Positions 2,595 through 63,505 of a DNA stretch of 64,000 nt are shown here, piece by piece (positions within the stretch are counted from its first letter, which is position 1; each line of letters begins with the position of its first letter). The position numbers and the translations under genes are program-made. The stretch spans positions 906 to 64,905 of the forward strand of contig JAFPZP010000083.1 in the NCBI GenBank assembly GCA_017417215.1, read 5' to 3'. Source of the DNA: Candidatus Rifleibacteriota bacterium (GTDB lineage: Bacteria > Muiribacteriota > Ozemobacteria > Ozemobacterales > Ozemobacteraceae). The notes under the pieces are model-generated. The model had not been told where the DNA came from and made no database searches. It saw only the letters and a list, made by a program, of their open reading frames with translations.

Positions 2595-2756
2595 GGGGGG
2601 AGCAAGAGTCAAATTTATTGAGATATAGGATATAAGATATAAGATATAAGATTGAAGATATAAGATTGAAGAACAATAGAGCGGACAGCAATCAAAGTTT
2701 GGGTATTAGTGATTGGTGATAGGTGGTGGGTGGTGAAGATGTGAGATATGAGAAGT

Positions 2757-2829
2757 CTACACATTTGTCATAAAAAGTATAGCGTATAGGCTTCAGCCCT
2801 GAAAGCTATACATTTATGACAATGGGTAG
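2757..2829. repeat. 73-nt palindromic intergenic element, family A, copy 1
   Basis: The sequence is ctacacatttgtcataaaaagtatagcgtataggcttcagccctgaaagctatacatttatgacaatgggtag. The arms are complementary around a central GC-rich tip. Five other 73-nt copies occur in the window. Confidence 0.9.
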
Positions 2830-2849
2830 AGTACAAAAGAGTTAAGAAA

Positions 2850-7446: not shown

Positions 7447-7464
7447 GGGGAAAAGATTGAATAA

Positions 7465-7823
7465 GCGGAATGACCTATAAGCCGGGTTCTGTGCCTCAAT
7501 TAAGAGGTGCCAATCATCTATCTTGGACTAGAATTACTCCCAGCCTCCAGCGATTTACCCGAGGTAGATAACGAAGCGGGCCACTTCTTCCTCTGTTTAA
7601 TCTTGCTTCGAGTGAGGTTTACCGAATGAACTGTCACCAGCCCATTAGTGCGCTCTTACCGCACTTTTTCACCCTTACCGATTGCTCGGCGGTATACTTT
7701 CTGTTGCACTGTCTGTCCTGCTGAAATTTCTCTCAGCAAGCCTGGATGTTATCCAGCACCCTGCCCTGGGAAGCCCGGACTTTCCTCATTCCGTAAAGGA
7801 ACGCGATTGACCAGTCATTCCGC
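7465..7823 (-). ncRNA. rnpB: RNase P RNA (bacterial, motif order like E. coli M1 RNA)
   Basis: The minus strand contains GAGGAAAGTCCGGGC, CAGGGTGC, GTGCAACAGAAAG, GGTAAGGGTGAAA, GTGCGGTAAGAGCGCAC and ACAGAACCCGGCTTAT. The P1 helix is formed by GCGGAATGAC (5' end, 7814-7823) pairing with GTCATTCCGC (3' end, 7465-7474). Confidence 0.93.
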
Positions 7824-10086: not shown

Positions 10087-11253
10087 TTGAATGATTCGCA
10101 AAATAATAAAGTATCTTGTTTAGGGAAAATCTTTCTGACATTTTTATCTTTATGTTTAGTACTTTTTTTATGCCTTATAGCTCTTATTGGCTGGGGATAC
10201 TACGAGTTAAAATATACAAATGACTTAGCCGTATACGCATCAAAGAAACTATCGAGACCTAATAAATATTCGATTGAGATAGAAAGCTTCAAAGATACTT
10301 TTCCCTTAATTACAGGTAATAATGTTAGTTATAGAAAAATAAGCAATGTCTCAACTTTAACGATTAACGTAAACGAACTAACTATTTATCCTGATTATAT
10401 CAACCCTAAAAACGGAACCCAAAGTTTTATATTTTCAAATGCCTCTATGTTTCTGCAATCGAAGAAATTTCTCATGAATGCAAATCCTATAGAGTTGTCA
10501 GGCAAATATAATCAGAAACATATTTATATAGCTTCTTCAACCTGGAATGTTTTTGGTGGGAAAATCTATCTTTCTGGGCATATTGATACAAGTATCCGAC
10601 CATCACCCTATGAAATCAATGCCGACCTCATATATGTCAGACTTCAAGATATTCTTGAGGGAACAAAGAACAAAGGCTTATACACAGGTGATGTCTACGG
10701 CAAACTAAATCTACAGAGTTCTGCTGGGAAAAAATCACCCATATATGGGAAAGCCAGTTTATCTATAACCAATGGCAGCTACCATAAACCTGAGTTAATC
10801 ATAAGAATAAATTCTGCTCTTAGAAAAATCGGGTTGCACAATACGTTAAGAGACCTTCCCGAAAGGGTTGGGAGCAGTACATTTTCTCTTAATGGTGATT
10901 TTAGACTTATTGAAAATGCTTACGAGACAAAGAATACAATAATAAAAACGCCCTGGAGTCTTATAAGATTTTCTGGATTAATAGGACCAAAATCAGCATT
11001 AAATGGAACATTCATAATCAAGTATAAAAATTATTCTGATTTTACAATAAAAGTAAATGGGAAAGACTCTAAGCATATGAGTTACAAGGTTTCAGACAGT
11101 GATAAAGCAAGACTCGCCTCTATATTTATGAGAGAATTAAGTAAAGGCACAGGGAAACAGATAAAGCAAGAGGGGCATAGGACAAACAGAAGAGTAAACA
11201 ATGGGTTAGATAGCCTTGGGAGAGGCCTTAGGAAGTGGTTTAAAGGGAAGTAA
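10087..11253 (+). CDS. hypothetical membrane-anchored protein (388 aa)
   Basis: One N-terminal TM (IFLTFLSLCLVLFLCLIALIGWGYY) and a basic C-terminus. I recognise no domain. Confidence 0.55.
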   Translation: MNDSQNNKVSCLGKIFLTFLSLCLVLFLCLIALIGWGYYELKYTNDLAVYASKKLSRPNKYSIEIESFKDTFPLITGNNVSYRKISNVSTLTINVNELTIYPDYINPKNGTQSFIFSNASMFLQSKKFLMNANPIELSGKYNQKHIYIASSTWNVFGGKIYLSGHIDTSIRPSPYEINADLIYVRLQDILEGTKNKGLYTGDVYGKLNLQSSAGKKSPIYGKASLSITNGSYHKPELIIRINSALRKIGLHNTLRDLPERVGSSTFSLNGDFRLIENAYETKNTIIKTPWSLIRFSGLIGPKSALNGTFIIKYKNYSDFTIKVNGKDSKHMSYKVSDSDKARLASIFMRELSKGTGKQIKQEGHRTNRRVNNGLDSLGRGLRKWFKGK

Positions 11254-11263
11254 GACAGAACAG

Positions 11264-11432
11264 CCAAGCATAGCTTGGCGTGATGAGTGGTTGGTGGTGG
11301 GTGGTGAGTGAGCGTACAGTAGACGCGAGACCTCTATTCTCCGCACAAGGCTCGTTCCCTCAAAGTCTATCCGAAGGTACAAATTCTCAGAGACCGCGGA
11401 GGAGAATAAGGTTGAGCAAGCAGACTGTCCAC
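11264..11432 (+). repeat. composite 3'-end element, copy 1 (CCAAGC..GCTTGG palindrome + GGT-rich tract + 121-nt family B hairpin element)
   Basis: It starts ccaagcatagcttggcgtgatgagtggttggtggtgggtggtgagtg. The B element follows, bounded by gcgtacag...ctgtccac, then TTTTAAAG. It begins 10 nt after the stop of the upstream + strand gene. Confidence 0.9.
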
Positions 11433-11442
11433 TTTTAAAGAA

Positions 11443-11477
11443 GTTGAGAAATGAGAATTGAGAGATGAGAGAATTAG
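11443..11477 (+). repeat. 7-mer tract (NNTGAGA) x5
   Basis: The units read gttgaga aatgaga attgaga gatgaga gaattag, directly after B copy 1. Confidence 0.7.
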
Positions 11478-11481
11478 AATC

Positions 11482-13728: not shown

Positions 13729-13808
13729 AGAGAGCAGAGAGCAAAAGAGCGATAGAGCAATAGTGCAGCAGAGCGGAGAGATTAGAGTTGAGAGTTGAGA
13801 GTTGAGAC
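13729..13808 (+). repeat. purine-rich low-complexity tract (AGAGCNNN units, then TTGAGAG 7-mers)
   Basis: The sequence is agagagcagagagcaaaagagcgatagagcaatagtgcagcagagcggagag followed by attagagttgagagttgagagttgagac. A similar AGAGC tract lies at 18392-18428. Confidence 0.8.
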
Positions 13809-13988: not shown

Positions 13989-16900
13989 CTAGAAGTGATA
14001 CTCAACCGCAACCGAACCTCCGAACCCCTGTCGTTTACCTGTAAAGCCGAAGAGAGAGATGTCGGTCTTCCAGGGGTTGGTCTTTGTGGCTTCACGGCAA
14101 TAGCCGAATTCTCCGCGAAGAGTGCCGCCCTTTACGCTAGCCGAACGTATTGGAGTTCCATTGACCGTTCCTCTGGATTCTCCGCCGAATTCGTGGTCGA
14201 AAGCTAAGCCCCCGTAGCAGTTCCACTTCCTTTGTGTAGTGCTGTATCTAAAACCAGCACGCAACACTCTGCTTCTGACTTCGTCTAATAAATACTGGTC
14301 TGCGCCGGCAGCGAAGTTTATGCCCTCACGTTCGTTGTAGAAGTATTTGCCGTATATATCAAGCTTTGTGTTATCCTCTTCTTTGTAAGTTTTCCCAAAG
14401 CCGATGTGACCGCCACGGTATTTTGTACTGGTGTCATATCCGTAGGCATTTCCTGCACCGTCGTGAAGTAGACTTGAGGCTTTGTCTTTTAAGCTGCCCA
14501 TTCTGAAACTTGCTTCGGTATAAACATCATGGCTGTTGGTCCATTTCAGTAAGAAACCACCGCCTGTGTAGTGAGTATTACCGCTGCCGGCATCTTCAAT
14601 ACCATTCATGTGAAGAGTATAGTTGCCTCTGCCGTATTCGCCGAACAGACCGTATTCAAGGGTGCCATCACTCTTTTCGAGGTTTTTGCCTACTGCCACA
14701 GCAATATTCCAACTGTTAGTATCGACGTGGCTGCCTGTTTCATAGCGTGATGAACCACCGCCCACGGATGCTGCGGTTGAAACTCCGTCAGAACCCTTGT
14801 TAGATGCCATTCCCAAGCTTTCCATTACTGTGCCTATGTGGTCATTACCAGCGGCAAGTGCTGCTATACCAGCTTCCATGGACATAACAGTGGTATGGGT
14901 TTCTTCAGACAGGCCGGCACTGGTCTTGGTCTTGAAAACAAGGTCGCTTCCATCCAGATAAGCAGAACCTTCGCCTTCATAAGCTGTACCAACTTTATAT
15001 TTACTGCCTGTAATGGTACCAACGCTGTCACCAAAATCAGACACTAAAGTCATCTGCATATTTGCTTTCATATCATCTTTGTTGGTAAAAGCAATTTTGG
15101 TTGTGTCTACATCGGCACCATCGAATGAAACATTGCTCAACATTGTTTTGTGGTCTATCAAAGCGCCTTTGTCCAGCCATTCCACATTACCGAAAGTCAG
15201 CTTGTTGGCTTTGTTTGAAACAGTCTTCAATGTGATATTCCCGCTCTTAGCTTCAAGACTGTTTCTGATTACCGCATCCATAGTCACACCGGAAAGAGGT
15301 TCATACTGGTAAGTTACTGATTTTTCCAATGCTGCCATATCGGCGAGGGTTTCGTTGGCTTTCAGAAGAGTCATAGACTGATTGACCGTAATTGTTTCAG
15401 GCTTTTCATAAGTAATATTGAAGTCTTCTGTATCTAATGTGGTAAGCTTAGAATAATTGTATTTATCACGGCTAAGAAGTTCAGCTCCATCTTCCCAAGC
15501 AACAGAAGCAAGTTTAAAGGAAGTAACGTCATTGAATACGGCGTGATAGGTAAGTGTTTTTCCATCATCAGAGGCTTTCACACCACCGGTATGTATGCCA
15601 AAAAGGGTTACACCCTTTCCGCTATCTTCTTTAAAGTTATCATTCTTATATCTTATAGCTTCATCAATCTTTTCGTCTTTGAAAACATTGGTGGAGGCTG
15701 TCAGAATATTTATTGATTCTCCAGCAGATAATTCTGGATCTGCGAAAACTCCAGAAACATCAATTCCATCGGCATTTAAACTCCAACCGCTAGGAAACTC
15801 TGATGAACTTTTGCCGTCCCAGTCTGAAAGGTCAACGCTGTTCAGCGTAATTCCAGTAAAGTAGATTTGTAAAGCTTTATCAACCTTTTTTATATTACCT
15901 GAACTTGTTCCCTCAAAAGTAATACCTTTATCCTTTTCTGATACAGGAACGGTCTTTACAGAGATGCCATTGGGGTTATCTGAAAAAGCGACAGTCTGTT
16001 CATTACCTGTTTCGTCTAGTTTGTATCTTAGATTTATGAGAGATTCTGTTTCATTTTCCCAAGTGATAATATTCATTTTATCATTTGAGCTAAATGTTGT
16101 TTTTTCACTATTATTTTCATAAAACTTCAAATCTGTGACATCCACTGTACCGATGTTTTCAAGAGAAGCAGCCTTAATAGCAGGTAAATCATTATTCCAG
16201 GCTATGCTGTGCAGTGCGATGGTTTCAAAGTTAGCGATTTTTTTAACAGAGTTATCAACTGTGCCTTCACTGTTTTTACCCTGCCAAATGGTTGTTTCAT
16301 CGCTTTTGTATATAATATTTCCATCGGAATCGCGTTTAATCTTGTCTTCATCATCGTAATCTACGCCTTTGCCGATATGAAGTTCATTACCTGAGTGAGT
16401 TCCAGAGCCATTTTTAAAATAATAACCGTAGATTTCTGCATTGTTCAGCCCAGTTACTGTACCGCCAAGGTTTACGACATTGTCTGAAATTGTTGAATTA
16501 TTTGGTTCATAAACAAAACCTGCATAAATTTTACTTTCGGAGCCAAAAGTTCCTCCGCTGATGTTGACATAATTGTTGGCTGCATTACCCAAAACAGCTT
16601 CCCCGCCTACAACATCTTTAACAATTCCACCACTGATGTTTGCAGAGTTATTGCTGGCAGCATTCCCTGAATTAGAATACCCGCCAAAAACGGTAATATT
16701 TACAGTACCACCGCTCAGGTTTGCAGAGTTGCCGATAGCATCAGCAGTAAGAGAATACCCGCCAAAGACGTAAGTATCCACAGTTCCATTGCTCATGTTA
16801 ACAGAGTTACCTGTTACATTATGATTATCAGAATACCCGCCTAAAACATAACCAGTAATTAATGTTGAATCTCCGTCAATGCAAACAGAGTTGCTGGCAA

Positions 16901-18220
16901 CATTTCCTGAAACCGATGACCCACCATAAACATAATTTTTTACTGTTCCTCCGCTGATGTTGACAGAATTGCAGAGAGTATCACCAGAATTAGAATTTCC
17001 GCCATAAACTTTTTGTTCTATGGTTCCGCCATTGATGATGACAGAGTTGTTTGTATTTTCACCAGCATTAGAAGATCCCCCACAAACATTATAATCCACA
17101 GTTCCGCCGCTTATGATGACGGAGTTGCTCGCTGCTTTACCAGATTGAGAAAGCCCGCCAAAAACATAACCAGTAATCGATGTTGTATCTCCGCTGATGC
17201 TGACAGAGTTACCGATAGAATCGCCAGATTCTGAACTAATGTATCCACCATAAACCAGTTGCTCTACCGTTCCGCCACTGATGTCGACAGAATTGCCAAT
17301 GGTATTACCGGAATAAGAATAACCACCCAAAACTTTTTTAGACTTCCGCCACTGACGTTGACAGAGTTGCTAGCGGCATCACTTGAATAAGAATACCCAC
17401 CAGTAGCACTTTTTATATTTCCGCCGCTGATGATGGCAGAGTTGCTTTCAGCATTACCAGAATAAGACTTCCCACCATAAGCTTCTTCACTAATTAATGT
17501 TGTATCTCCACTTATAATGGTAGAGTTATTAACAGCGTTACTCTCTTGAGAATAGCCACCATAAACATTTGCCATACTTCCGCCACTTATATTGACTGAG
17601 TTGCTAGCAGATTTAACCTCATAAGAATAGCCACCAATAACATTTGTCATACTTCCGCCGCTGATGTTGACAGAGTTGTTGGTAGCTTCACCAGATTTAG
17701 AATAAGCACCATAAACATCTTGTTCTATATTTCCGCCGAGGATATTAACAGAATTGCTAGCTGAAATACCAGAAATAGAAAACCCGCCACTAACTGTAGC
17801 ATTTATAGTTCCATCACTGATGTTGACTGAGTTACTGGAGGCAGTTCCCGAATTAGTATACCCGCCATAAACAGAATTATTCACTGTTCCGCCATTCACA
17901 ATATCAACACTAGCTTCTTCAACATCCTCAGAATCATTTCCTTTATGACCGTATACATTGCCAGTTACGTTTGAATTATCAATAATTACATTATATGGAG
18001 AATGACCTGTATAATTGCCAGAAGTATCTAAATCGCCACCATCAATTACAGCCAATGCACTGCCAGCGGTAGTATAAACCGCTGCTGCAACGCCCACCGC
18101 TATAGCAGCCCTACGTATGGAGCGGCGGCTGCCGCCTCTGCTGTAACTTTTTGCCAATTCACTGGCTACAACATAACAATGCTTTGCGTTATTCCAAATG
18201 ACTTTGAATATTTTGTTCAT
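13989..18220 (-). pseudogene. type Va autotransporter adhesin (ESPR signal, about 20 degenerate ~26-aa repeats, C-terminal beta-barrel), split by a frameshift at an A6 tract (17334-17339)
   Basis: The N-terminus MNKIFKVIWNNAKHCYVVASELAKS is the extended signal peptide of type V secretion. The passenger is built from NSVNISGG-x5-VYGGYS-x-SG-x-A units. The C-terminus has alternating beta strands ending in VAVEYHF. ORFs 17264..18220 and 13989..17330 overlap in different frames. One extra A would give ...SGGSLKKVLGGYSYSGNTIGNS..., which fits the repeat pattern. Confidence 0.88.
16535..17920 (-). repeat. intragenic tandem repeats (about 75-84 nt units) encoding the adhesin passenger
   Basis: NSV-N/D-ISGG ... 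YGGYS recurs at regular spacing through both ORF halves. The borders are approximate. Confidence 0.7.
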
Positions 18221-18391: not shown

Positions 18392-18495
18392 AGAGCAACA
18401 GAGCAAGAGAGCGGAAGAGCAGAGAGCCAAGCAAAGCTTGGCTTAATGTGTGGTTGGTGGTGAGTGGTGGGTAGTGAGTAAGCGGTTGGTGGGGG
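18392..18495 (+). repeat. AGAGC tract + CCAAGC..GCTTGG palindrome + GGT-rich tract (no B element attached)
   Basis: The sequence is agagcaacagagcaagagagcggaagagcagagagCCAAGCaaaGCTTGGcttaatgtgtggttggtggtgagtggtgggtagtgagtaagcggttggtggggg. Confidence 0.8.
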
Positions 18496-24512: not shown

Positions 24513-24553
24513 TCTAAAGCCCATACGCTATACTTTTTATGACAAATGTGTAG
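24513..24553. repeat. family A element, right arm only (truncated copy)
   Basis: ctaaagcccatacgctatactttttatgacaaatgtgtag is preceded by a GGT-rich stub (atgatgggtggtgagggt). Confidence 0.8.
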
Positions 24554-24608
24554 CCAATTAATACAATCCAATTTGGACTAAAAAAATATTTATAGCAATA
24601 GTTTGTTA

Positions 24609-25449: not shown

Positions 25450-25655
25450 TTTTAATCCTATCTAATATATATTTTAGACTATTATAGCAGATTTTATATG
25501 CTTTTGCTATACCCCCTGTGTGCAATTTGAGGACATAGGACAAATAGATTAGAGTGAATCAATAGTGAAGAAATAAGAAAAGAGGATATTAAGTGACCGA
25601 AAGGAACTTGTCCGAAAGCTAGAAATTTGATGAAAAATCAGTATTTGTTTGTAGC

Positions 25656-25728
25656 CTACACATTGTCATAAACGTATAGCTTTCAGGGCTAAAGCCCATA
25701 CGCTATACTTATTATGATAAATATGTAG
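25656..25728. repeat. family A 73-nt palindromic element, copy 3
   Basis: The sequence is ctacacattgtcataaacgtatagctttcagggctaaagcccatacgctatacttattatgataaatatgtag. Its left flank, gaaatttgatgaaaaatcagtatttgtttgtagc, is shared with the copy at 63358. Confidence 0.9.
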
Positions 25729-25757
25729 GCTTTTCTTATCTCTCGATTCTTTTAAAA

Positions 25758-25920
25758 GCGGACAGTTGCTTGCTCAACCTTATTCTCCTCCGCGGTCTCT
25801 GTAAATTTGTACCTTCGGATAGACTTTGAGGGAACGAGCCTTGTGCGGAGAATAGAGGTCTCGCGTCTACTGTCCGCTCACTCACCACCTACCACCAACC
25901 ACTCATCGCGCTAAGCTTAG
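25758..25920 (-). repeat. composite 3'-end element, copy 2 (reverse orientation)
   Basis: The 120-nt B element (25758-25877) is bounded by gcggacag/ctgtccgc. It is followed by tcactcaccacctaccaccaaccactcatcgcg (the GGT tract on the minus strand) and the palindrome ctaagcttag. It ends 2 nt from the stop (25923-25925) of the minus-strand HEAT gene. Confidence 0.9.
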
Positions 25921-25922
25921 GG

Positions 25923-28415
25923 TTAGCTGTGTTTTTCCAAAGCGAGGCGGGCATTTCTCTTAACGTCAATAGAAATGTCGCCGTTAGCCATTCTTCTAAG
26001 AGCTTCTTCAGCTGAATAATCAGGAATATCAGCCAAAGCCTTAACTACAGCATAACGAACTTCTGTAGACATATCTCTTTCGCAGGTTAAAATAAGCTTT
26101 AAAGCTTCCATGTTTGCTATTCTACCAAGAGCGTTGATAGTAGCGACTCTTACAGATTCATTTCTATCTTTTAAAGCACCGCGAAGAAGTATTATAGATT
26201 CTTTACTCTGAGGATAATCACCAAGCATGTTGGCTGCATTTCCTCTGACAGTTGGGCTATCATCAAGCAATTTCAAACGAATTTTATCAAATTCTAAAGA
26301 AAGACCAGTAATCTTATCTAATGGGAGGTCTTCTTCTTCATTGATTTCAATATAATTAGCATTTTCTACTGGTTCAGCATATACTTCTTCAATATTGTTG
26401 CCATAGGTTTCTTCCCTAATACCTTCTTCTTGAGGAAGCTCACCACTCTTATACCCATCCAGTTCAACTACAACTTCTTCGGGGGTATTATTTACAGCAT
26501 CAAGTTCTTCGTTATTGAAGCCACGATTTGCTTCTTGTCTTGAATCCTGGACATAATCATCTTCATTGAAAAATACTTCACCAGAATAGTCTTCAGGATT
26601 AATACTCAGAACAGCTTCACCTTTTCTTGAATTTCTAGCTTTTACAGTTTCAGCAGCATCTAAAATAGCATCTCTTCTAGATGGTGGAACACTGCCATTT
26701 GCTTGATCTGCTTCAGCCTTAGCCTCATTAGCTGCTTTTTCACGATTAGCTTTTTCTATTGAATCATTGATAAAATTGATATCAGTATTAAACTTAGTTA
26801 CTTCAGAGAAGACTTCTGGAGCCACTTTTTCTTTTGCTAAACGATAAAGTTCCTGATCTAATCTACGGGAAGCATTAATCAGTTCTTCTATAACTTCTGG
26901 GTTTTCCTGCCCCATCAAAGCCATAGAAGCCTTGTAACATATTTCAGAATCGGCATCATTCAAGTAAGAACGCAAGATATCTATAGCTCTCTGATCTTTA
27001 AACTGGGAAAGAATTTCGATCTTTGCAATAATCTGGCTTTTTCTTTCTAAGCCGTTTTTCTCGTCTGACAGACGTTTGAAAACTTCTTCAAATGAATAAC
27101 TTGTTATAGCTTTTACAGCTGAGAAACGAACAACTTCGTTTTCGTCTTCTGCACATTTCATCAATGCTTTCAAAGCAACAGCAACGCCAGTAGTTCCAAG
27201 TGCATAAGCGGCTGAAGCTCTTACAAATTTATCTTCGTCTCTTGTGGCACCAATCAACGCTTCTACAACTTTAGGTTCAGAATGACCACTCAAAGCAGTA
27301 GCTGCTGCATATCTAACCGCAACATTATCGTCTTTTAATGCTTGGATTAAAGCAGCAACAGACTTTTCCGAACCCATTCCGCCAAGAGCCTCAGCAGCCA
27401 ATGCTCTTATAGCTTCTGATTCAAGAGTATTAGTAAGAGCTTTGCTTAAAGGTTCTACAATATCATCACTTTCTTCAATTCCAATAGCTGCCTTTGCAGC
27501 CATCTGTCTCATCTGTTCGTTATTGTCATTCAAGCCTTTTTTGACTAATTCTTTGCGAGGAATCGGGCTTCCGTCAGGCTGGAAATATTCTATTGGAAGC
27601 TGCTCAACCTTGAAAGCAACCATTTCTTTATAGTTTCTTGGAGCAGATTCCTGATTCTGAATATTAGTGGGATTATCATAGTTCTGTGTATCAGAAACTA
27701 CCAAAGCACCGCCAAGATACTCTTCTGCGGCCTTATAAAGTTCATCATCATTCTTTTTGGAAACTTCAAGAAGAGGTTCTATTGCTCTTTCATCGCCCAT
27801 AGCGCCAAGTATTTCAGCAGCAACCAAAGCGACAGATTCTTCGGGGTCATAAAGAGCATTAATCAACTCAGGAACAGCAGATTCAAGCTTCTGATAGCCT
27901 GCTTCCCTCATAGCAGCAATTCTATGTCTAACAGGTGCCTTAGGATTCTTGATGATACTTACTGGGTCGCTAATTAGAAGCTGATAATCCAATTCTACCT
28001 TAGGTTCTTCTTTTTTTACTTCCTGAGGTTTTTCCTCATTAGTCTTTTGATTATCTGTTACTTCACTAGAGTCAGTTACATTTTCTTCTGGTTTTGTTAC
28101 AGTTTTTACTAATAACTCTGTAGAATTATTTTCTTCTTGTTCAGCCATCTGATCAGCTGAAGCTTCAATTTTTATATCTTTTTCTTCTTCTTTGTCTACT
28201 ACTTCAACTTTTTCAACTTTTTTAATTGCGCTTCGAATCTTTGTTTTCTGAGCATCAGAAACTCCAGCAGGTTTTGCACCACCTACTTCTCTTACATTAG
28301 CCGGTAGTTTGGCGTGTGACATTTTATAACGTAGTATTAAAATGTGTGCAACTACTACGATAACCAGTATTACTACCGAAGAGATTAAAATTGTATCAAT
28401 ATCTAGATTATTCAT
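25923..28415 (-). CDS. HEAT-repeat (PBS-lyase-type) protein with N-terminal TM, 830 aa
   Basis: Helical repeats of the type VRxxAAxALGxxGDxRAIEPL recur, e.g. VRHRIAAMREAG, VALVAAEILGAMGDERAIEPLL, VRYAAATALSG, VRASAAYALG and VRVATINALGRI. The N-terminus is hydrophobic. Confidence 0.7.
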   Translation of the reverse strand: MNNLDIDTILISSVVILVIVVVAHILILRYKMSHAKLPANVREVGGAKPAGVSDAQKTKIRSAIKKVEKVEVVDKEEEKDIKIEASADQMAEQEENNSTELLVKTVTKPEENVTDSSEVTDNQKTNEEKPQEVKKEEPKVELDYQLLISDPVSIIKNPKAPVRHRIAAMREAGYQKLESAVPELINALYDPEESVALVAAEILGAMGDERAIEPLLEVSKKNDDELYKAAEEYLGGALVVSDTQNYDNPTNIQNQESAPRNYKEMVAFKVEQLPIEYFQPDGSPIPRKELVKKGLNDNNEQMRQMAAKAAIGIEESDDIVEPLSKALTNTLESEAIRALAAEALGGMGSEKSVAALIQALKDDNVAVRYAAATALSGHSEPKVVEALIGATRDEDKFVRASAAYALGTTGVAVALKALMKCAEDENEVVRFSAVKAITSYSFEEVFKRLSDEKNGLERKSQIIAKIEILSQFKDQRAIDILRSYLNDADSEICYKASMALMGQENPEVIEELINASRRLDQELYRLAKEKVAPEVFSEVTKFNTDINFINDSIEKANREKAANEAKAEADQANGSVPPSRRDAILDAAETVKARNSRKGEAVLSINPEDYSGEVFFNEDDYVQDSRQEANRGFNNEELDAVNNTPEEVVVELDGYKSGELPQEEGIREETYGNNIEEVYAEPVENANYIEINEEEDLPLDKITGLSLEFDKIRLKLLDDSPTVRGNAANMLGDYPQSKESIILLRGALKDRNESVRVATINALGRIANMEALKLILTCERDMSTEVRYAVVKALADIPDYSAEEALRRMANGDISIDVKRNARLALEKHS

Positions 28416-28481: not shown

Positions 28482-29045
28482 ATGAAATTAATTGGAAACG
28501 TAATAATATCTGATGAAGTTTGGGATACCAAGTTCGACTGCGATTTAACCAAATGCAAAGGGAAGTGCTGTCAATACGGCGACATAGGTTCACCTATCAC
28601 AGAAGAGGAAGAAGAACTGATTAAAAAGAATCTGAAAAATGTTGCACCTATGCTTTCAGAAGAAAATCTTAAACTTCTAGAAAAAGGAATAACAATTAAA
28701 GATAAACGAGGCGACCTTCATATAGTTGAAGGGGCACACAACACCCCCTGCCCTCTTTCATTCATTAATAAGGAAGGGATAGTAATGTGCTCACTGCATG
28801 ATTACTGTTTGAAAAAGAAAAAGAAAGTGCTCGATTTAAAACCGCTGTGGTGCTCGCTTTTTCCATTAATTATTAAAAACACTTCTGTCGGTTGGATAAT
28901 TAACTGTTACTTACCAGAATTCTGTAAGTCGAAAGAGAATCCGCAACCTTTGCTGCTGGCTTTTTCTGAGTATTTATCAGCTATATTTGGAGAACAATGG
29001 GTTGAAGCAGTAAGGAAGGAGTACGCCAAGCAGAGCTTGGAGTGA
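28482..29045 (+). CDS. Cys-rich protein, DUF3109-like
   Basis: The N-terminus DCDLTKCKGKCCQYGDIGSPITEEEE matches, from memory, the CDL-x-KC-x-G-x-CC-x-x-GD-x-G-x-P start of that family. The last 7 codons and the TGA lie inside composite repeat copy 3. Confidence 0.45.
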   Translation: MKLIGNVIISDEVWDTKFDCDLTKCKGKCCQYGDIGSPITEEEEELIKKNLKNVAPMLSEENLKLLEKGITIKDKRGDLHIVEGAHNTPCPLSFINKEGIVMCSLHDYCLKKKKKVLDLKPLWCSLFPLIIKNTSVGWIINCYLPEFCKSKENPQPLLLAFSEYLSAIFGEQWVEAVRKEYAKQSLE

Positions 29046-29193
29046 TTGGTGGTGGGTGGTAGGTGATGTGAAAGCGGACAGTAGACGCGAGACCTCTATT
29101 CTCCGCACAAGGCTCGTTCCCTCAAAGTTTATTCGAAGGTACAAATACACAGAGACCGCGGAGGAGAATAAGGTTGAGCAAGCAGCTGTCCGC
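29026..29193 (+). repeat. composite 3'-end element, copy 3
   Basis: ccaagcagagcttggagtgattggtggtgggtggtaggtgatgtgaaa is followed by the 120-nt B element (29074-29193, gcggacag...ctgtccgc) and then TTTAAAG. Confidence 0.9.
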
Positions 29194-29209
29194 TTTAAAG
29201 AATTGAAAT

Positions 29210-29749
29210 TTAGAAGAAATATTTCTTCCAGGAACCGCGGTTGGGTTTGCTGAAGCTGTAAATAGGCTTAGAGCCGTCAACTTCACCATACTTCAATTCG
29301 TCAACTTTATTGAAGTATTCTCTAGAAGCTGCATATTCACCCATTTTTACAAGAATATTACCTGCTTCATCATAAAGTTCATAATTCTTCTTATTCTTAT
29401 CGATTAAATCTCTAACCAACCAGAATGCATCTTCGAAATAGCCTTTGCTTACAAGGCACTGACTTAAAAACCATTTGGCATACTGATGGTTTGCATCTAA
29501 CTTCAATGTTCTTTTATATTCTTCAATAGCTTTATCTATCATATCTCTAGCATAATAGAAATTAGCTATTTTATAACTTATATCAGCATTGTCAGGGTCA
29601 TTCTTACGCATATTCTTTAAACGATGATAATATCTTTCAGAATCTTTGATGCCAATATATGCACTACCAGGATCTCCGCCATAGGTATATGGCAATAAAG
29701 CAACAAGAACCAATATTGCGGCAACAATAGAAATCATTTTCTTTAGCAT
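29210..29749 (-). CDS. small TPR-repeat secreted protein
   Basis: It has a signal peptide (MLKKMISIVAAILVLVALLPYTYG). TPR-like pairs include YKIANFYYARDMIDKAIEEYKRTLKLDANH and YAKWFLSQCLVSKGYFEDA. Confidence 0.6.
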   Translation of the reverse strand: MLKKMISIVAAILVLVALLPYTYGGDPGSAYIGIKDSERYYHRLKNMRKNDPDNADISYKIANFYYARDMIDKAIEEYKRTLKLDANHQYAKWFLSQCLVSKGYFEDAFWLVRDLIDKNKKNYELYDEAGNILVKMGEYAASREYFNKVDELKYGEVDGSKPIYSFSKPNRGSWKKYFF

Positions 29750-41138: not shown

Positions 41139-41939
41139 ATGTCTCAGTACAAATCACAAATCCAAAATATGTTCTTGTCTCAAGCAAGAAAAAAGCACCA
41201 GAAAATAGAATTAGTCCTTGAAACAGGAACAGTTTTACGTGGAAAACTTAAAGCCTATGATCAATTTTCTGTAACTTTAGGTTTTAAAGACCAATCAGAA
41301 GTTATATATAAATCTTCTATAATATATATGACTATTCTTCCTCCTCTTCACACTCCTGGTTTCGGAAGAAAACCAAGATATGGTTCTAGAGAAGATGGTT
41401 ACAGAAATGACGACGGATACAGAAGAAATTACGATTACGAAGATGATGATAGTGATGAATTAGATTATGAAGAAAACACAAGAGCTCTGAATAGTTATCG
41501 TAAATTAGGCGACGATACTGATAATTATAAAATAGACAACTATTACCGCGATGATAACGATGGTTATAGAAGAGATAATTATCACAGAGATAACGATGGT
41601 TATAGAAGAGATAACAACTACCGCAGAGATAATGACGGTTACAGAAGAGACAACTATCGTAAAGATAATGACAGTTATAGAAGAGATGGTTACCGCAGAG
41701 ATAACGATGGTTATAGAAAAGATAACGGTTATCATAGAAGCGATAATGATGGCTATAAACGCAATTACAATAAAGACGATAATGGTAATCGCTCAGATGG
41801 TTATCAAAAGCCATATTACAGACGCAAAGACGAAGATTACGATAGCAAGCCTATGAATCAAAGAAGACCCTATAATAGAAGAGATGATGACGATGATGAT
41901 CCACCGCCACCAAGAAAAGTCATAGTAAAACGTTATTGA
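41139..41939 (+). CDS. hfq: RNA chaperone Hfq with a ~200-aa Asp/Arg/Tyr-rich repeat tail
   Basis: The Sm fold reads IQNMFLSQARKKHQKIELVLETGTVLRGKLKAYDQFSVTLGFKDQSEVIYKSSIIYM; compare E. coli [56 protein letters not shown]. The tail has about 10 DGYR(R/K)(D/N) units. Confidence 0.85.
   Translation: MSQYKSQIQNMFLSQARKKHQKIELVLETGTVLRGKLKAYDQFSVTLGFKDQSEVIYKSSIIYMTILPPLHTPGFGRKPRYGSREDGYRNDDGYRRNYDYEDDDSDELDYEENTRALNSYRKLGDDTDNYKIDNYYRDDNDGYRRDNYHRDNDGYRRDNNYRRDNDGYRRDNYRKDNDSYRRDGYRRDNDGYRKDNGYHRSDNDGYKRNYNKDDNGNRSDGYQKPYYRRKDEDYDSKPMNQRRPYNRRDDDDDDPPPPRKVIVKRY
41541..41768 (+). repeat. intragenic tandem repeat (~33-36 nt units) encoding (Y)RRDNDGYRRDN
   Basis: gataacgatggttatagaagagataa... 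is repeated. The region is open in 4 of 6 frames, which produces the shadow ORFs 41386..41814, 41505..41735 and 41551..41856. Confidence 0.85.
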
Positions 41940-45485: not shown

Positions 45486-45660
45486 GGGCAAATGCAAACT
45501 TTTTTAGCTATTAATCAGTATTTATTTGTTTTTAGCCTACCCATTGTCATAAACGTATAGCTTTCAGGGCTAAAGCCCATACGCTATACGTTTTATGACA
45601 AATGTGTAGGCAATTAGCACAGAAAGCCTTATCAATAAAAGAAAAAATTTGCGTTTGCCC
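45486..45660. repeat. outer inverted repeat enclosing family A copy 4 (nested palindrome)
   Basis: gggcaaatgcaaactttttt (45486-45505) pairs with aaaaaatttgcgtttgccc (45642-45660). The 73-nt element 45537-45609 lies at the centre. Confidence 0.75.
45537..45609. repeat. family A 73-nt palindromic element, copy 4
   Basis: The sequence is ctacccattgtcataaacgtatagctttcagggctaaagcccatacgctatacgttttatgacaaatgtgtag. Its flanks are aatcagtatttatttgtttttagc and gcaattagca. Confidence 0.9.
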
Positions 45661-48314: not shown

Positions 48315-48533
48315 CTACACATTGTCATAATTGTATTAAGGCGAAAGTAAACATTTTGACGTCTACACATTGTCATAAACGTATAGCTTTCAGGGCTAAA
48401 GCCCATACGCTATACTTTTTATGACAAATGTGTAGACTTATAAAATTAAGTATGTTCAGCCTATCCATTGTCATAATCATATAGCTTTCAGAGCTAAAGC
48501 CCATACATTATACTTTTTATGACAAGTGTGTAG
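48315..48533. repeat. cluster of family A elements: one left-arm stub (48315-48330) + two full 73-nt copies (48363-48435, 48461-48533)
   Basis: The leader ttttgacgt+ctacacattgtcataa occurs twice, at 48306 and 48354. The two full copies are separated by 25 nt. Confidence 0.9.
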
Positions 48534-48614
48534 ACTATTAATTATATATAGATCTGTAGCTAATTTGTCCTAGTATAGTTGAACGTATAAAATATACTGT
48601 ATATAATAAAGGCT

Positions 48615-49256: not shown

Positions 49257-49260
49257 AAAA

Positions 49261-49285
49261 GCGGATAGTTGCTTGCTCAACCTTC
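49261..49285 (-). repeat. truncated 3' terminus of a family B element, overlapping a gene end
   Basis: The + strand gcggatagttgcttgctcaacctt equals the first 24 nt of B copy 2 with one mismatch. On the minus strand it reads ..GAAGGTTGAGCAAGCAACTATCCGC-TTTTTT and contains the TGA of ORF 49277..51031. Confidence 0.7.
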
Positions 49286-51031
49286 AGGAGTGGTAAATAT
49301 CCATTGAGACAGAAGGATTTCACCATTCTGGGTCTTTTCCAAGAAAAGCAAACCGCTTATTGGCTCGAATGCAACGTCTCTGTTACAAACTTTTTGAGGA
49401 CCCTTTATCTTCCAAAACATTCTGCCATTATTTCCAATAAGGGCTAATGTTCTTGAATTGTCTTCTGTTGAAGAAACCAGTAATTCGCCATCTATTCCAT
49501 TGGGACCTAATTCAAGATTAGTCGGCTCAAAATATTCACTAAATGTGTATTTAATGCCATTCTTTTTACCAGCATAATCATAAAGATTAGCTTCCCAGCG
49601 TTTTTCAGCATTTTTATTCATAGACCAGAATAAACCATTATCTACTGGCACTGTCGTATAAACTTCAGGCAAAGTTACAGGAGCTGATTCATTTTTAGAC
49701 AAGAAATAAGCATTGTTTCCACCAGAAAGAATAACACCCTTATCACAGGCTTCAATTCTACAGGAATCATAAGGTCCTTTAGACCATTTTGGGAAAGCAT
49801 GACCGCCAATCATGCCCTGTTCATCCAGATATATGATTTTACCAACAACAACATCATAATCTATTATTTTAGTTGATGTATTAAGCTTATGATTCTTTAT
49901 ATTACCATTGGTTAAATCAACAGTGATATATTTCCCATTAGAAGCCAAAATGAATGCCAAATTCTTATAGACACGAATTCCTACAAGATTTGAAGAGATT
50001 TCTAAAGGTATTTTTGCTATATTTTTGGTTTTTATCTCCATTGAAGCAAAATTAGAAGAAACGCCTTTGGCTTTACTCCATTCTAAGGGTTTAACAATAA
50101 ATTTTGTTTTTGGAGCTGTTTCAAAATTTGCTTCTGCCTGGAATACTTTGTTTCCTGCAACTTGAATATAGCGATTCATTGAAGTAGGAGGAACATACTG
50201 TAATTTTTCCAGAACTTCACCACATTTACTAACTTTTAGAAGGTCTAATACTCCTTTATAACCATCTTCTGGTATCATAGAAAGAATAAGAGAGCCGTCA
50301 TCTGTCAAAGAGTTAATTTTCAAATTAGTATTATTAATGAAGCCTAAGTGTGTACTATTAAGCAACTGACCTTTTGAAGAATAAACCCTATGGAAATAAC
50401 CTACATTTTCACAATAATTAATCAAATGTAGATTTGCATATTTATCAACAACAAAACCAGTTGATTGCCAGTAGTATTCTCTTAAAAATGAACCTGTTGA
50501 AGTAAAGACTGACAATTTACTTCTTCCTATATCTCCAACATAAAGTCTACCGCCAGCATCAACTTCAATCTGATTGACCTGTATAATTTTACCGGGTTCG
50601 TTTCCTGCCCCACCTACCTGAGCTAAAACCTTACCATCAGCAATGGATATCTTGCGGATAGTGTTATCTGCAGCATTTGCTATCCAAACAGATTCAGGAT
50701 TATTCAAATCATTACCGACTAATGCAAAGTCTTCTAACAACTTAAACCCTTCAAGACCTGGAACAACAACGGTTTTAACCAGATTTCCCTTTTCATCAAA
50801 GCAACTGAGTTTTCCGGCTATTGAATCTAAAACCCATAAATTATTATTTATGACTCTGAAAGAGAGAGGTCCATAAGGAATATCTTCTGCAAACTTGGGG
50901 GTATTATTACTATTATAAAAAGCTACCTTGCCTTTTTCATTTCCATAATCAAGATTCCATGTCTGAGCCTGACAGCTAGCAGATGCCAAGCTCAGCATAG
51001 TTGCAACACAAAGAAGAGAAATAGATTTCAT
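49277..51031 (-). CDS. secreted beta-propeller-like protein (584 aa)
   Basis: It has a signal peptide (MKSISLLCVATMLSLASASCQA). NHL- or YVTN-like strands recur (NTIRKISIADGKV, GRLYVGDIGRSKLSVFTSTGSF). The domain call is weak. Confidence 0.5.
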   Translation of the reverse strand: MKSISLLCVATMLSLASASCQAQTWNLDYGNEKGKVAFYNSNNTPKFAEDIPYGPLSFRVINNNLWVLDSIAGKLSCFDEKGNLVKTVVVPGLEGFKLLEDFALVGNDLNNPESVWIANAADNTIRKISIADGKVLAQVGGAGNEPGKIIQVNQIEVDAGGRLYVGDIGRSKLSVFTSTGSFLREYYWQSTGFVVDKYANLHLINYCENVGYFHRVYSSKGQLLNSTHLGFINNTNLKINSLTDDGSLILSMIPEDGYKGVLDLLKVSKCGEVLEKLQYVPPTSMNRYIQVAGNKVFQAEANFETAPKTKFIVKPLEWSKAKGVSSNFASMEIKTKNIAKIPLEISSNLVGIRVYKNLAFILASNGKYITVDLTNGNIKNHKLNTSTKIIDYDVVVGKIIYLDEQGMIGGHAFPKWSKGPYDSCRIEACDKGVILSGGNNAYFLSKNESAPVTLPEVYTTVPVDNGLFWSMNKNAEKRWEANLYDYAGKKNGIKYTFSEYFEPTNLELGPNGIDGELLVSSTEDNSRTLALIGNNGRMFWKIKGPQKVCNRDVAFEPISGLLFLEKTQNGEILLSQWIFTTPEG

Positions 51032-63330: not shown

Positions 63331-63357
63331 AATAATCAGTATTTATTTGTTTGTAGC

Positions 63358-63430
63358 CTACCCATTGTCAAAAACGTATAGTTTTCAGGGCTAAAGCCCA
63401 TACGCTATACTTTTTATGACAAATGTGTAG
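63358..63430. repeat. family A 73-nt palindromic element, copy 8
   Basis: The sequence is ctacccattgtcaaaaacgtatagttttcagggctaaagcccatacgctatactttttatgacaaatgtgtag, with the same flanks as copy 4. Confidence 0.9.
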
Positions 63431-63505
63431 GCAATTAGCAATTTTAATTTGGACTTAAAAATTAGTTTTCGAACAACCTCTATATGAGAAGCTTCTTTAA
63501 AAAGT

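Follow-up and report, generated by a model that had tools for sequence, protein, structure and literature searches.

A high-copy palindromic repeat, probably a mobile element of the MITE/REPIN kind, in intergenic DNA of uncultured rumen bacteria

Composite repeats in the window

The 64,000-nucleotide stretch of DNA analysed here (the window), assigned to a Candidatus Rifleibacteriota bacterium, contains three copies of a composite repeat of ~170 nt, located at 11264-11432 (+), 25758-25920 (-) and 29026-29193 (+), which follow the ORFs 10087..11253, 25923..28415 and 28482..29045, respectively. A first-pass annotation of this DNA had described in each copy a short palindrome, a GGT-rich tract with a 7-nt period, a unit of 120/121 nt and a final TTT(T)AAAG, and this module order was borne out by reading the sequence in all three copies. 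The internal pairing TCTATTCTCCGC / GCGGAGGAGAATA within the unit is likewise present, the offsets from the stop codons of the three ORFs (-20 to +10 nt) are as claimed, and the differences between the copies are few and grouped in apical patches. The 8-nt inverted termini attributed to all three units needed no correction in copies 2 and 3; the termini of copy 1, on the other hand, are degenerate (Table 1), and both changes break pairs.

Pairwise repeat-finder matches among the three copies extend over 161-166 nt at 90-96% identity. The nhmmer E-values of the copies range from 1e-61 to 1e-63, and a covariance model run over the whole window returned the three copies at 141-155 bits and no other significant match, scores that exclude chance.

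Table 1. Repeat modules located in the window, with strand and supporting evidence
Feature	Position	Strand	Evidence
Copy 1, module A, short palindrome CCAAGCATAGCTTGG	11264..11278	+	Direct reading; aligned in other copies/loci
Copy 1, module B, GGT-rich, 7-nt period (GATGAGT GGTTGGT GGTGGGT GGTGAGT)	11279..11311	+	Direct reading, alignment
Copy 1, hairpin unit, 121 nt, degenerate termini GCGTACAG...CTGTCCAC	11312..11432	+	Covariance model, 141 bits
Copy 1, 3' linker TTTTAAAGAAGTTGAGA leading to heptamer array (TGAGAAA x4.9)	11433..11479	+	Direct reading
Copy 2, module A, short palindrome CTAAGCTTAG	25911..25920	-	Direct reading
Copy 2, module B, GGT-rich heptamer tract	25878..25910	-	Direct reading, alignment
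Copy 2, hairpin unit, 120 nt, GCGGACAG...CTGTCCGC	25758..25877	-	Covariance model, 155 bits
Copy 2, 3' linker (TTTTAAAAGAATCGAGAGATAAGAAAAG) and adjoining second, unrelated palindromic repeat family	25631..25757	-	Repeat finder
Copy 3, module A, palindrome CCAAGCAGAGCTTGG, overlapping final codons and stop of ORF 28482-29045	29026..29040	+	
Copy 3, module B, GGT-rich tract; terminal AAA lengthens terminal stem	29041..29073	+	Sequence, fold
Copy 3, hairpin unit, 120 nt	29074..29193	+	Covariance model, 153 bits
Copy 3, tail TTTAAAG	29194..29200	+	Direct reading
Palindrome and GGT-tract module without hairpin unit	18427..18490	+	Repeat finder; nhmmer E=4e-5
Solo 3' tail of unit (AAGGTTGAGCAAGCAACTATCCGCTTT) at stop codon of ORF 49277-51031	49257..49284	-	93% over 27 nt

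The unit of copy 3 occupies the spacer between the convergent genes 28482-29045 (+) and 29210-29749 (-), with A3/T3 extensions flanking its stem on both sides, and the contigs L001, L002 and L119, which are nearly identical, retain this copy. In the region of copy 2, a block of ~310 nt (25609-25918) recurs with 91-94% identity at other loci of other genomes (L007, L008, L013, L015). The solitary tail at 49257-49284 (nhmmer E=5e-4; a weak covariance-model match, E=0.61) probably marks the end of a copy that has decayed, from which the adjoining ORF takes its final codons, an assignment of low confidence past 27 nt.

Modularity and spread of the unit

The 120-nt hairpin unit behaves as a module of its own: only about one third of its copies come with the palindrome and the GGT tract, and ~85 units among the matches listed lack both. 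The palindrome and GGT tract in turn stand alone at 18427-18490, so the modules are separable. Alternative 5' and 3' neighbours of the unit recur, the position of module B being taken elsewhere by an AGAGC-type heptamer tract or by a different module, while the type of 3' linker seen in copy 1 recurs after ~40% of units elsewhere. A T-run (at least 3 T), contributed by a linker that is itself separable, follows 41 of 98 units; in the window copies it consists of 3-4 T and then A. The heptamer tandem tracts presumably resemble the STRR-type repeats of cyanobacteria.

The unit is present at 18 loci in two GTDB species and in at least 120 metagenome contigs, and two rumen MAGs (RUG334 and 'Candidatus Riflebacteria' Rumen_Coassembly_mag_344) together with metagenome contigs hold at least 129 near-complete units at no fewer than 102 flank-defined sites. 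Its location is almost entirely intergenic. The aroA orthologues of three loci (L122, L108 and L086) carry unit sequence in frame; the full-length unit in the L108 gene may be an assembly artefact, and one further long open frame across a unit is probably spurious. Units are ~95% identical between genomes whose single comparable orthologue pair is ~47% identical in protein, a disparity that requires either horizontal spread or strong constraint.

The repeat was not matched in phage collections, in plasmid collections or among IMG/VR contigs. Against Rfam 15, the whole window at the gathering threshold yielded RNase P RNA at 7462-7822 as the sole match, and a permissive scan of 28900-29350 returned only a spurious 15-bit match outside the element, in agreement with the earlier remark that no described RNA family fits this architecture.

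Predicted structure and sequence variation

At minimum free energy (about -57 kcal/mol) the window copies fold into a long imperfect hairpin, with a z-score of no better than -1.9 to -2.2 on the strand considered by the first-pass annotation, compared with -4.7 on the opposite strand of copy 3. The terminal inverted repeat, (A)GCGGACAGT...ACTGTCCGC(T), spans 9-11 bp; the unit termini are GGACAG/CTGTCC, and the tetranucleotide following GGACA varies (GTAG, GCAG or GCTG). Sub-families vary this repeat at both of its ends together. Seven pairs of the terminal stem are changed on both sides (31 cells), which is matched in 0 of 500 shuffles and gives a score above all slid controls, and in one sub-family the termini AATAATGACAG...CTGTCATTATT replace GAGCGGACAG...CTGTCCGCT. 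The mismatches within the stem comprise 19 of the G·U type and 21 of the A·C type; with the two types equally frequent and no G·U excess, the mismatches carry no RNA signature that would single out one strand. A single ancestral G·U position breaks the symmetry of the mismatches, and its AU and GC variants are explicable by descent.

The arms, which do not fold individually as small palindromes, are strongly conserved, and variability lies at the apex, concentrated in alignment columns 62-86; since the copies were retrieved by exact 20-21-mers, the conservation of the segments so matched is built in by construction. The unpaired segments CACAA and GTTCCCTCAAAG show conservation above 90%, for which host function could be another cause. 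At the apex, RNAalifold predicts no structure, manually proposed helices (TATC/GRTA) are kept inconsistently, and covariation is lacking.

Besides the short form of 120-124 nt there is a long form of ~330 nt, found at 3-4 sites, which has only the termini in common with the short one. The long form is without the central helix, yet it has spread. Neither form contains an ORF specific to the element, and both fall below the ~600 bp usual for a MITE.

Orientation and gene context

An RNA-level role had been proposed for the repeat from strict co-orientation with the upstream gene, the terminal hairpin and the U-run. Although co-orientation holds for all three copies in the window, it does not extend to the family, in which 40 of 77 copies are co-oriented with the upstream gene (p=0.82), a random pattern obtained from gene calls that are ORF heuristics; the counts at two other ORF thresholds are 42/78 and 40/78, and stricter ORF calls with the window copies excluded give 39/75 or 38/75. 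Under random orientation, the chance of finding three co-oriented copies out of three is 1/8. Copies followed by a T-run are unoriented as well (14/27), and the composite copies alone show a non-significant lean (12/17 co-oriented). The first-pass annotation had stated that random orientation among genome-wide copies would refute its own proposal, and random orientation is what is seen over ~100 sites; with the T-run at fewer than half of the units, the RNA-level module is not supported for the family.

The contexts of the 71 fully flanked copies are similarly mixed (22 sense, 17 antisense, 17 divergent and 15 convergent). The distance to the upstream stop codon ranges from 10 to 964 nt; 14 copies lie no more than 60 nt downstream of a same-strand stop, compared with 7 in the mirror situation. 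The alternative raised in the same annotation, a MITE with strong preferences of site and orientation, is supported as regards a mobile element and dropped as regards both the orientation preference and the tight preference for stop codons.

Presence and absence at orthologous sites

The evidence for mobility of the unit is indirect and comes from comparisons. Orthologous loci of relatives are without the element where the window has one and carry it where the window has none, these filled and empty sites being compared between species only. At L120 and L128, the proteins encoded on either side share 73-99% identity with their window counterparts, and the spacer between the HEAT and FmdE genes measures 82-97 nt and is free of repeats, versus 473 nt with copy 2 in the window; in both loci a unit is found on the other side of FmdE instead. 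At L019, the orthologue of ORF 10087 has the unit on its upstream and not on its downstream side. Exact-protein look-ups for a strain-level empty site returned contigs that were too short to be informative or started inside repeats, and the Der protein had no exact match on record.

Target-site duplication was sought in 84 copies for k=2-9 at boundary offsets of 0-13. From k=3 upwards no excess was seen, and a 2-nt GC/GC at the boundaries is inseparable from the inverted repeat. Pfam analysis of 40 window ORFs revealed no transposase, and that of ORFs lying between two copies, where an autonomous partner might be encoded, identified ordinary genes (SpoIID, LuxC/E, Rnf and others). All-versus-all clustering of ORFs from ~1 Mb of fragmentary loci gave orthologues only and no multi-copy protein, and a motif screen for RAYT and HUH/Y1 enzymes over all ORFs of the window and the ~1 Mb of loci produced 0 matches. 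The mobilising enzyme is consequently hypothetical. A reading of the solo tails as ends of a longer insertion sequence was rejected, the tail at L077 belonging to the 330-nt long form and those at L122 and L070 lying inside aroA.

Relation to known repeat families

Several families of bacterial repeats share features with the unit. Like Correia/NEMIS elements of Neisseria and ERIC/IRU elements of enterobacteria, it is a non-coding, multi-copy and mainly intergenic sequence in the 100-200-nt range, with terminal inverted repeats, transcripts that fold as one long imperfect hairpin, and size variants with common ends. It differs from them in having no sequence similarity, in residing in another phylum, and in showing no detected target-site duplication (TA or other), no evidence for an IHF site or promoter and no known cognate IS. 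Copies of Correia/NEMIS and ERIC/IRU elements can lie at gene 3' ends and there affect termination or mRNA decay secondarily (PMC10969869).

In REPINs the ends are conserved, the spacer between them is variable and compensatory changes occur; together with their RAYTs, they resemble the unit and its copies in inverted conserved ends, an ssDNA/RNA hairpin, random extragenic placement, the lack of target-site duplication and decayed 'singlet' remnants (PMC3116915). REPINs consist of two inverted REP palindromes (~20-40 nt each, with a conserved GTAG) around a spacer, and their single-copy RAYT gene, encoding a Y1 HUH transposase, is flanked by the repeats. In contrast to REPINs, the unit has arms of ~45 nt rather than short REP palindromes, its GTAG is not invariant, no RAYT was found in the window and ~1 Mb of loci, and its host is far from the Proteobacteria, where REPINs have been described.

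The mosaics around the unit, in which unrelated small modules stand side by side or nested in spacers, are comparable with BOX/RUP/SPRITE clusters and E. coli BIMEs, the modules being unrelated in sequence. Pneumococcal BOX, RUP and SPRITE repeats are known to cluster and nest, and SPRITE resembles a terminator (PMC10969869). The unit also recalls the Rickettsia palindromic elements in being a palindromic repeat of ~120-150 nt that is open in several frames and is found in frame in a housekeeping gene, here aroA. Such Rickettsia elements are frequently intragenic and in frame in protein-coding genes, whereas for the unit one gene is affected in ~1 Mb and an intergenic position is the rule.

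Origin and maintenance of the repeat

Taken together, the 120-nt unit is probably a mobile palindromic repeat, non-coding and non-autonomous, that belongs to the MITE/REPIN kind and has spread in the intergenic DNA of a lineage of uncultured rumen bacteria. The family is new but of a known kind, that of MITE/REPIN-like palindromic repeats, and is embedded in mosaics with other modules. An enzyme encoded elsewhere in the genome would copy the unit by recognising its conserved ends (left, ~21 nt; right, ~43 nt), perhaps in folded single-stranded form, and sequence conservation would then reflect selection for continued mobilisation and not host function. The ~170-nt composite would not be a designed unit but separable modules that have come to lie side by side (short palindrome, heptamer tract, hairpin unit, A/T-rich linker and second palindromic family), with neighbouring modules presumably nested as in BOX/RUP/SPRITE clusters and BIMEs. 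Where a copy has landed right after a gene, its terminal stem and T-run may terminate or stabilise that transcript, as a by-product or through local exaptation; some copies, above all the one at 29026-29200, which lies between convergent genes, may thus act as incidental terminators.

A more specific form of the mobile-element reading, which we hold tentatively as a possible sub-variant, is a REPIN-like replicator whose ssDNA hairpin is the substrate of a single-copy HUH/Y1 enzyme (RAYT or IS200/IS605-type). Such a substrate would account for the lack of a target duplication, for the compensatory changes and for the persistence of the repeat over long times, and the random extragenic distribution and high identity across divergent hosts are in line with it, as is the combination of conserved arms, variable apex and pair-keeping changes on both sides, which is the REPIN pattern (PMC3116915). 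The absence of short REP palindromes in the arms and the variable tetranucleotide near the 5' end weigh against it, as do the spread of the long form without a central helix, the lack of a Y1/HUH-like ORF in the window and loci, and the lack of a gene-strand bias such as strong lagging-strand preference might give. A wider formulation appears unlikely; it would make the repeat either a REPIN-like replicator that depends on its hairpin or a hairpin domesticated by the host, kept at ~95% identity across genomes whose proteins are ~50-80% identical, with the conserved unpaired segments as the putative binding site of a dedicated single-copy enzyme or of a nucleoid- or RNA-binding protein, and with gene-end copies co-opted as uni- or bidirectional terminators.

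That the unit is a portable intrinsic terminator or 3'-UTR stabiliser, its long hairpin and U-run ending or protecting the upstream transcript, is improbable. The position of all three window copies within -20 to +10 nt of a same-strand stop, each ending in TTT(T)AAAG, would fit this role, and so would copy 3, which fills a whole convergent spacer with AAA/TTT flanking its stem on both sides, and the ratio of 14 to 7 between gene-end and mirror positions; the SPRITE, Correia and ERIC hairpin repeats moreover affect termination or mRNA decay (PMC10969869). Against it stand the random orientation of the family, with 17 of the 71 flanked copies between divergent promoters, and a T-run that is confined to a minority of units, is part of a separable linker and is itself unoriented. 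The equal mismatch types and the modest sense-strand z-score point the same way. The terminal stem encloses an interior of ~100 nt and not a short loop, owing to which a standard consensus terminator scan calls no copy.

Even less probable is an identity as structured RNA genes, that is, trans-acting sRNAs or guide-like RNAs with the variable apical patch as specificity determinant. A conserved scaffold with variation concentrated in one patch and a stable predicted fold could suit this reading, and some MITEs give rise to sRNAs (PMC10969869), but there is no Rfam match, no apex covariation and no strand asymmetry, orientation is random, the copies often lie in 3' or 5' UTR space, and the interchangeable 5' neighbours leave no conserved promoter module upstream. 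A guide-like apex was rejected, the longest match (complementary or identical) to a copy's own flanks being 6.84 nt versus 6.77 nt for the flanks of other copies. Integron attC sites, imperfect palindromes at the 3' ends of promoterless cassettes arrayed beside intI, were rejected since the unit neighbours housekeeping genes that are dispersed (Der GTPase, PlsY-type G3P acyltransferase, DUF3109 and others), is itself randomly oriented and has termini that differ from the R''/R' core sites (GTTRRRY), and a DGR was rejected on context and variation pattern.

Significance for the lineage

Interpreted as a probable mobile palindromic repeat, the family does not overturn current understanding. In practical terms, annotation of rumen 'Riflebacteria'-type MAGs should treat the ~120-nt hairpins and their surrounding mosaics as dispersed repeats to be masked, and not as terminators or sRNA genes; many copies lie at contig ends, which accounts for breaks in the assemblies of this lineage. 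A DDE transposase gene bounded by GCGGACAGTAGACG...CAAGCAACTGTCCGC, if found, would make the unit a classical MITE. Should the wider replicator reading be true, it would represent a second, independent, long-lived and vertically persisting intragenomic replicator outside the Proteobacteria, in a candidate phylum without a known one. The finding adds to a poorly known uncultured lineage a high-copy palindromic family that exists in a short and a long form and has other modules nested with it, and in which the absent target duplication and the conservation across genomes raise the possibility of a REPIN/RAYT-like system beyond the groups described.

Architecture of the repeat in the window

The three copies of the ~170-nt composite were confirmed by reading the window sequence, and the order described in the first-pass annotation, in which a short palindrome is followed by a GGT-rich tract, a 120/121-nt hairpin repeat (the unit) and TTT(T)AAAG, was borne out, together with the inner pairing TCTATTCTCCGC/GCGGAGGAGAATA and the offsets of +10, +2 and −20 nt from the three upstream stop codons. 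The inverted termini attributed to each copy hold except in copy 1, whose ends are damaged (GCGTACAG...CTGTCCAC). Mean column identity among the copies is 87% across ~220 nt, with a near-invariant core, and a repeat finder gave copy-to-copy matches of 161-166 nt at 90-96% identity. A profile made from the copies recovered them at E = 1e-61 to 1e-63, and a covariance model gave them 141-155 bits and found no further significant match in the window. The unit is predicted to fold into a single long, imperfect hairpin (about −57 kcal/mol), with a z-score of only about −2 on the strand first read. That no described RNA family is involved agrees with an Rfam 15 scan of the window, which returned RNase P RNA only, and with a permissive scan of the locus, which returned nothing relevant.

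Features in the window and in L-numbered loci (sequences from other genomes or metagenome contigs carrying repeat matches)
Feature	Location	Remark
Composite copy 1	window 11264-11432 (+)	
Composite copy 2	window 25758-25920 (-)	
Composite copy 3	window 29026-29193 (+)	
Palindrome and GGT module without unit	window 18427-18490	
Solo 27-nt unit tail	window 49257-49284 (-), within apparent decayed copy 49257-49360 (-)	at stop of ORF 49277-51031
Second palindromic family	window 2743-2838, 24514-24565, 25631-25742, 45512-45619, 48338-48445, 48436-48543, 63333-63440	
Heptanucleotide arrays	window 2621-2666, 2845-2906, 11445-11479, 13776-13807	
GGT tracts (heptanucleotide arrays)	window 11279-11311, 25878-25910, 29041-29073, 18450-18479	
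Long form	L077:295-623; L129:1001-1331; L026:3078-3418 (= L069); L026:5887-6227	
Longer-apex variant	L009:2692-2853; L014:7618-7721	
In-frame unit sequence in aroA	L122:2003-2046; L108:~21-140; L086:2434-2470	L122 aroA ORF 1386-2657
Hfq-domain protein	window 41139-41939 (+)	domain at residues 8-66; DNA periods 36 and 75 at 41525-41757
Two adjoining long ORFs	window 13989-18220 (-)	probable type V (autotransporter-like) surface protein
RNase P RNA	window 7462-7822 (-)	bacterial class A, 270 bits

A mosaic of separable modules

The composite is a mosaic of modules rather than one unit. The palindrome and GGT tract are attached to only about one third of units, the other recurrent 5' neighbours being an AGAGC-type heptamer tract, a CTGTGGGACGTTTCACTGTGGTAATTGTTA module, a second palindromic family and also unique sequence. 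The T-run, found 3' of only 41 of 98 units, is part of a separable linker (TTTTAAAGAATTGAGA...) that runs into GAGA-type heptamer arrays, and a ~310-nt block at copy 2, comprising unit, linker and second palindrome, recurs at 91-94% identity in unrelated loci of two rumen metagenome-assembled genomes (MAGs).

The second palindromic family (~80-108 nt, CTACACATTTGTCATAAAAAGTATAGCGTATGGGCTTTAGCCCTGAAAGCTATACGTTTATGACAATGTGTAG), unrelated to the unit and present in seven window copies, often adjoins the unit's 3' linker in the window and in other genomes. Intergenic heptanucleotide tandem arrays (AGATATA, AGAAATG, TGAGAAA, GAGAGTT and GGTGAGT types) lie on both sides of the hairpin repeats, with AGAGCAA-type arrays in related loci; we take them to be reminiscent of cyanobacterial STRR repeats. 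Tandem repetition also occurs in coding sequence, namely as 12-25-residue repeats in the ~200-residue C-terminal extension of the Hfq-domain protein and as 75-78-nt repeats in the region of the surface-protein ORFs, the upstream one of which carries an ESPR signal-peptide domain.

Distribution and gene context

Units were collected via exact words. The 20-mer of the 5' arm matched 18 contigs, which among 185,579 species representatives belong to just two, both of them rumen MAGs (RUG334 and 'Candidatus Riflebacteria' Rumen_Coassembly_mag_344), and the 21-mer of the 3' arm matched at least 120 metagenome contigs; the element was not found in the phage, plasmid and viral-contig collections searched. 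The window derives from neither MAG, the single orthologue seen (ORF 10087-11253 against the RUG334 locus L019) sharing ~47% protein identity. In ~1 Mb of loci, nhmmer gave 161 matches, of which 129 are near-complete units that clustering on distal flanks reduced to 102 sites; some of these may be orthologous positions that have diverged, not separate insertions. Contig ends frequently coincide with copies, in keeping with a repeat on which assemblies break.

Strict co-orientation with the upstream gene, on which the RNA-level reading of the first-pass annotation had rested, fails across the family. When each site is represented once and ORFs are called heuristically, units share the direction of the gene upstream in 40 of 77 cases (p=0.82) and of the gene downstream in 45 of 91, a random orientation that the annotation itself had named as refuting its reading. 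Sense positions between co-directional genes number 22, antisense 17, divergent 17 and convergent 15. Stricter ORF thresholds gave 42/78 and 40/78, or 39/75 and 38/75 with the window copies left out; T-run-bearing units gave 14/27, and composite copies 12/17, which is not significant and takes in the three copies that prompted the finding. Were orientation random, three co-oriented copies of three would arise by chance once in eight. The gap to a same-strand upstream stop ranges from 10 to 964 nt.

Unit-derived coding sequence

ORF 49277-51031 appears to owe its final ~25 codons and stop to a decayed unit copy, with a clear tail and faint similarity upstream, an arrangement kept in L129. The unit is stop-free in three of six frames, and unit-derived sequence stands in frame in the EPSP synthase gene (aroA) of related genomes. 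Within the L122 gene, 43 of 45 nt of unit tail encode DGQPACSTLFSSAVY, in a loop just three residues longer than that of a solved homologue; the L108 ORF stays open across a complete unit in reverse complement, after which the contig stops, a case that may reflect misassembly.

Probable mobility and size variants

Two loci, L120 and L128, are orthologous to the window at 21-29 kb and encode proteins of 73-99% identity to those there. Between the HEAT-protein and FmdE genes they have a repeat-free spacer of 82-97 nt, compared with 473 nt in the window; on the other side of FmdE, before the following gene, the pattern is reversed, with a unit in these loci and none in the window. In RUG334, the ORF 10087 orthologue is preceded rather than followed by a unit. 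A long form of ~330 nt (three or four separate sites, 80-94% identical) retains ~21-24 nt from the unit's left end and ~45 nt from its right end, enclosing a ~260-nt core that is unrelated and has small hairpins of its own, and in one copy per MAG a ~55-nt sequence (TGGATTGCCACGCCTTCGGCTCGCAATGACGGTTAACTTGCGG) replaces the apical ~30 nt. The termini, being shared by these forms, are thus the common denominator, a pattern typical of elements that an end-recognising enzyme copies.

Structural constraint

In an alignment of 77 distinct units, the central helix shows no variation; the search word covered its 3' arm and not its 5' arm. Differences between units gather mainly in an apical patch of ~25 nt. 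Seven pairs of the terminal stem are altered on both sides (31 cells), exceeding 500/500 shuffles and all slid controls, and one sub-family has AATAATGACAG/CTGTCATTATT in place of GAGCGGACAG/CTGTCCGCT. Complementarity of the ends therefore matters, a finding equally compatible with a hairpin and with an inverted repeat that one protein binds twice. With one ancestral G·U position set aside, G·U-type and A·C-type stem mismatches are about equal (19 and 21), giving no sign of one RNA strand as the selected object. RNAalifold detected no conserved apical structure, no relation of the apex to a copy's own flanks was found, and no target-site duplication of ≥3 nt occurs at any plausible boundary.

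Interpretation

The unit is probably a non-autonomous mobile palindromic repeat mobilised in trans: its conserved ends would be recognised by an enzyme that copies it, and selection for mobilisation would keep the sequence conserved. Neither 50 window ORFs nor the ORFs lying between copies yielded a transposase domain, and no multi-copy protein or HUH/Y1-like ORF was found among the loci, whose sequence is fragmentary. Of the MITE offered earlier as an alternative, the evidence fits the mobile element but neither the orientation preference nor a close preference for stop-codon sites. Between a DDE-type MITE and a REPIN-like hairpin acting as single-stranded DNA substrate, some of the evidence leans to the latter, namely the missing target-site duplication and the conserved arms, variable spacer and compensatory changes that also characterise REPINs (PMC3116915); against it stand arms that do not form REP palindromes, variation in the GTAG motif and a long form without the central helix. 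Any terminator or stabiliser role would plausibly be no more than a local by-product: the spacer between convergent genes is filled by copy 3, whose stem A3/T3 extend on both sides, and Correia, ERIC and SPRITE repeats have documented side effects of a comparable kind (PMC10969869), but orientation to the upstream gene is random.

As a trans-mobilised repeat, the element would work like Correia/ERIC-type MITEs and REPINs and sits in mosaics similar to BOX/RUP/SPRITE clusters and BIMEs, with no sequence in common with any of them. Strict MITEs are defined by a target-site duplication, which it is without, and strict REPINs by REP palindromes, which its arms are not, and a RAYT, of which the fragmentary loci showed none; because each strict family is missed on at least one defining feature, it is filed under small palindromic dispersed repeats, in no named family. 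What is unusual for this element is the absent duplication together with its conservation across genomes.
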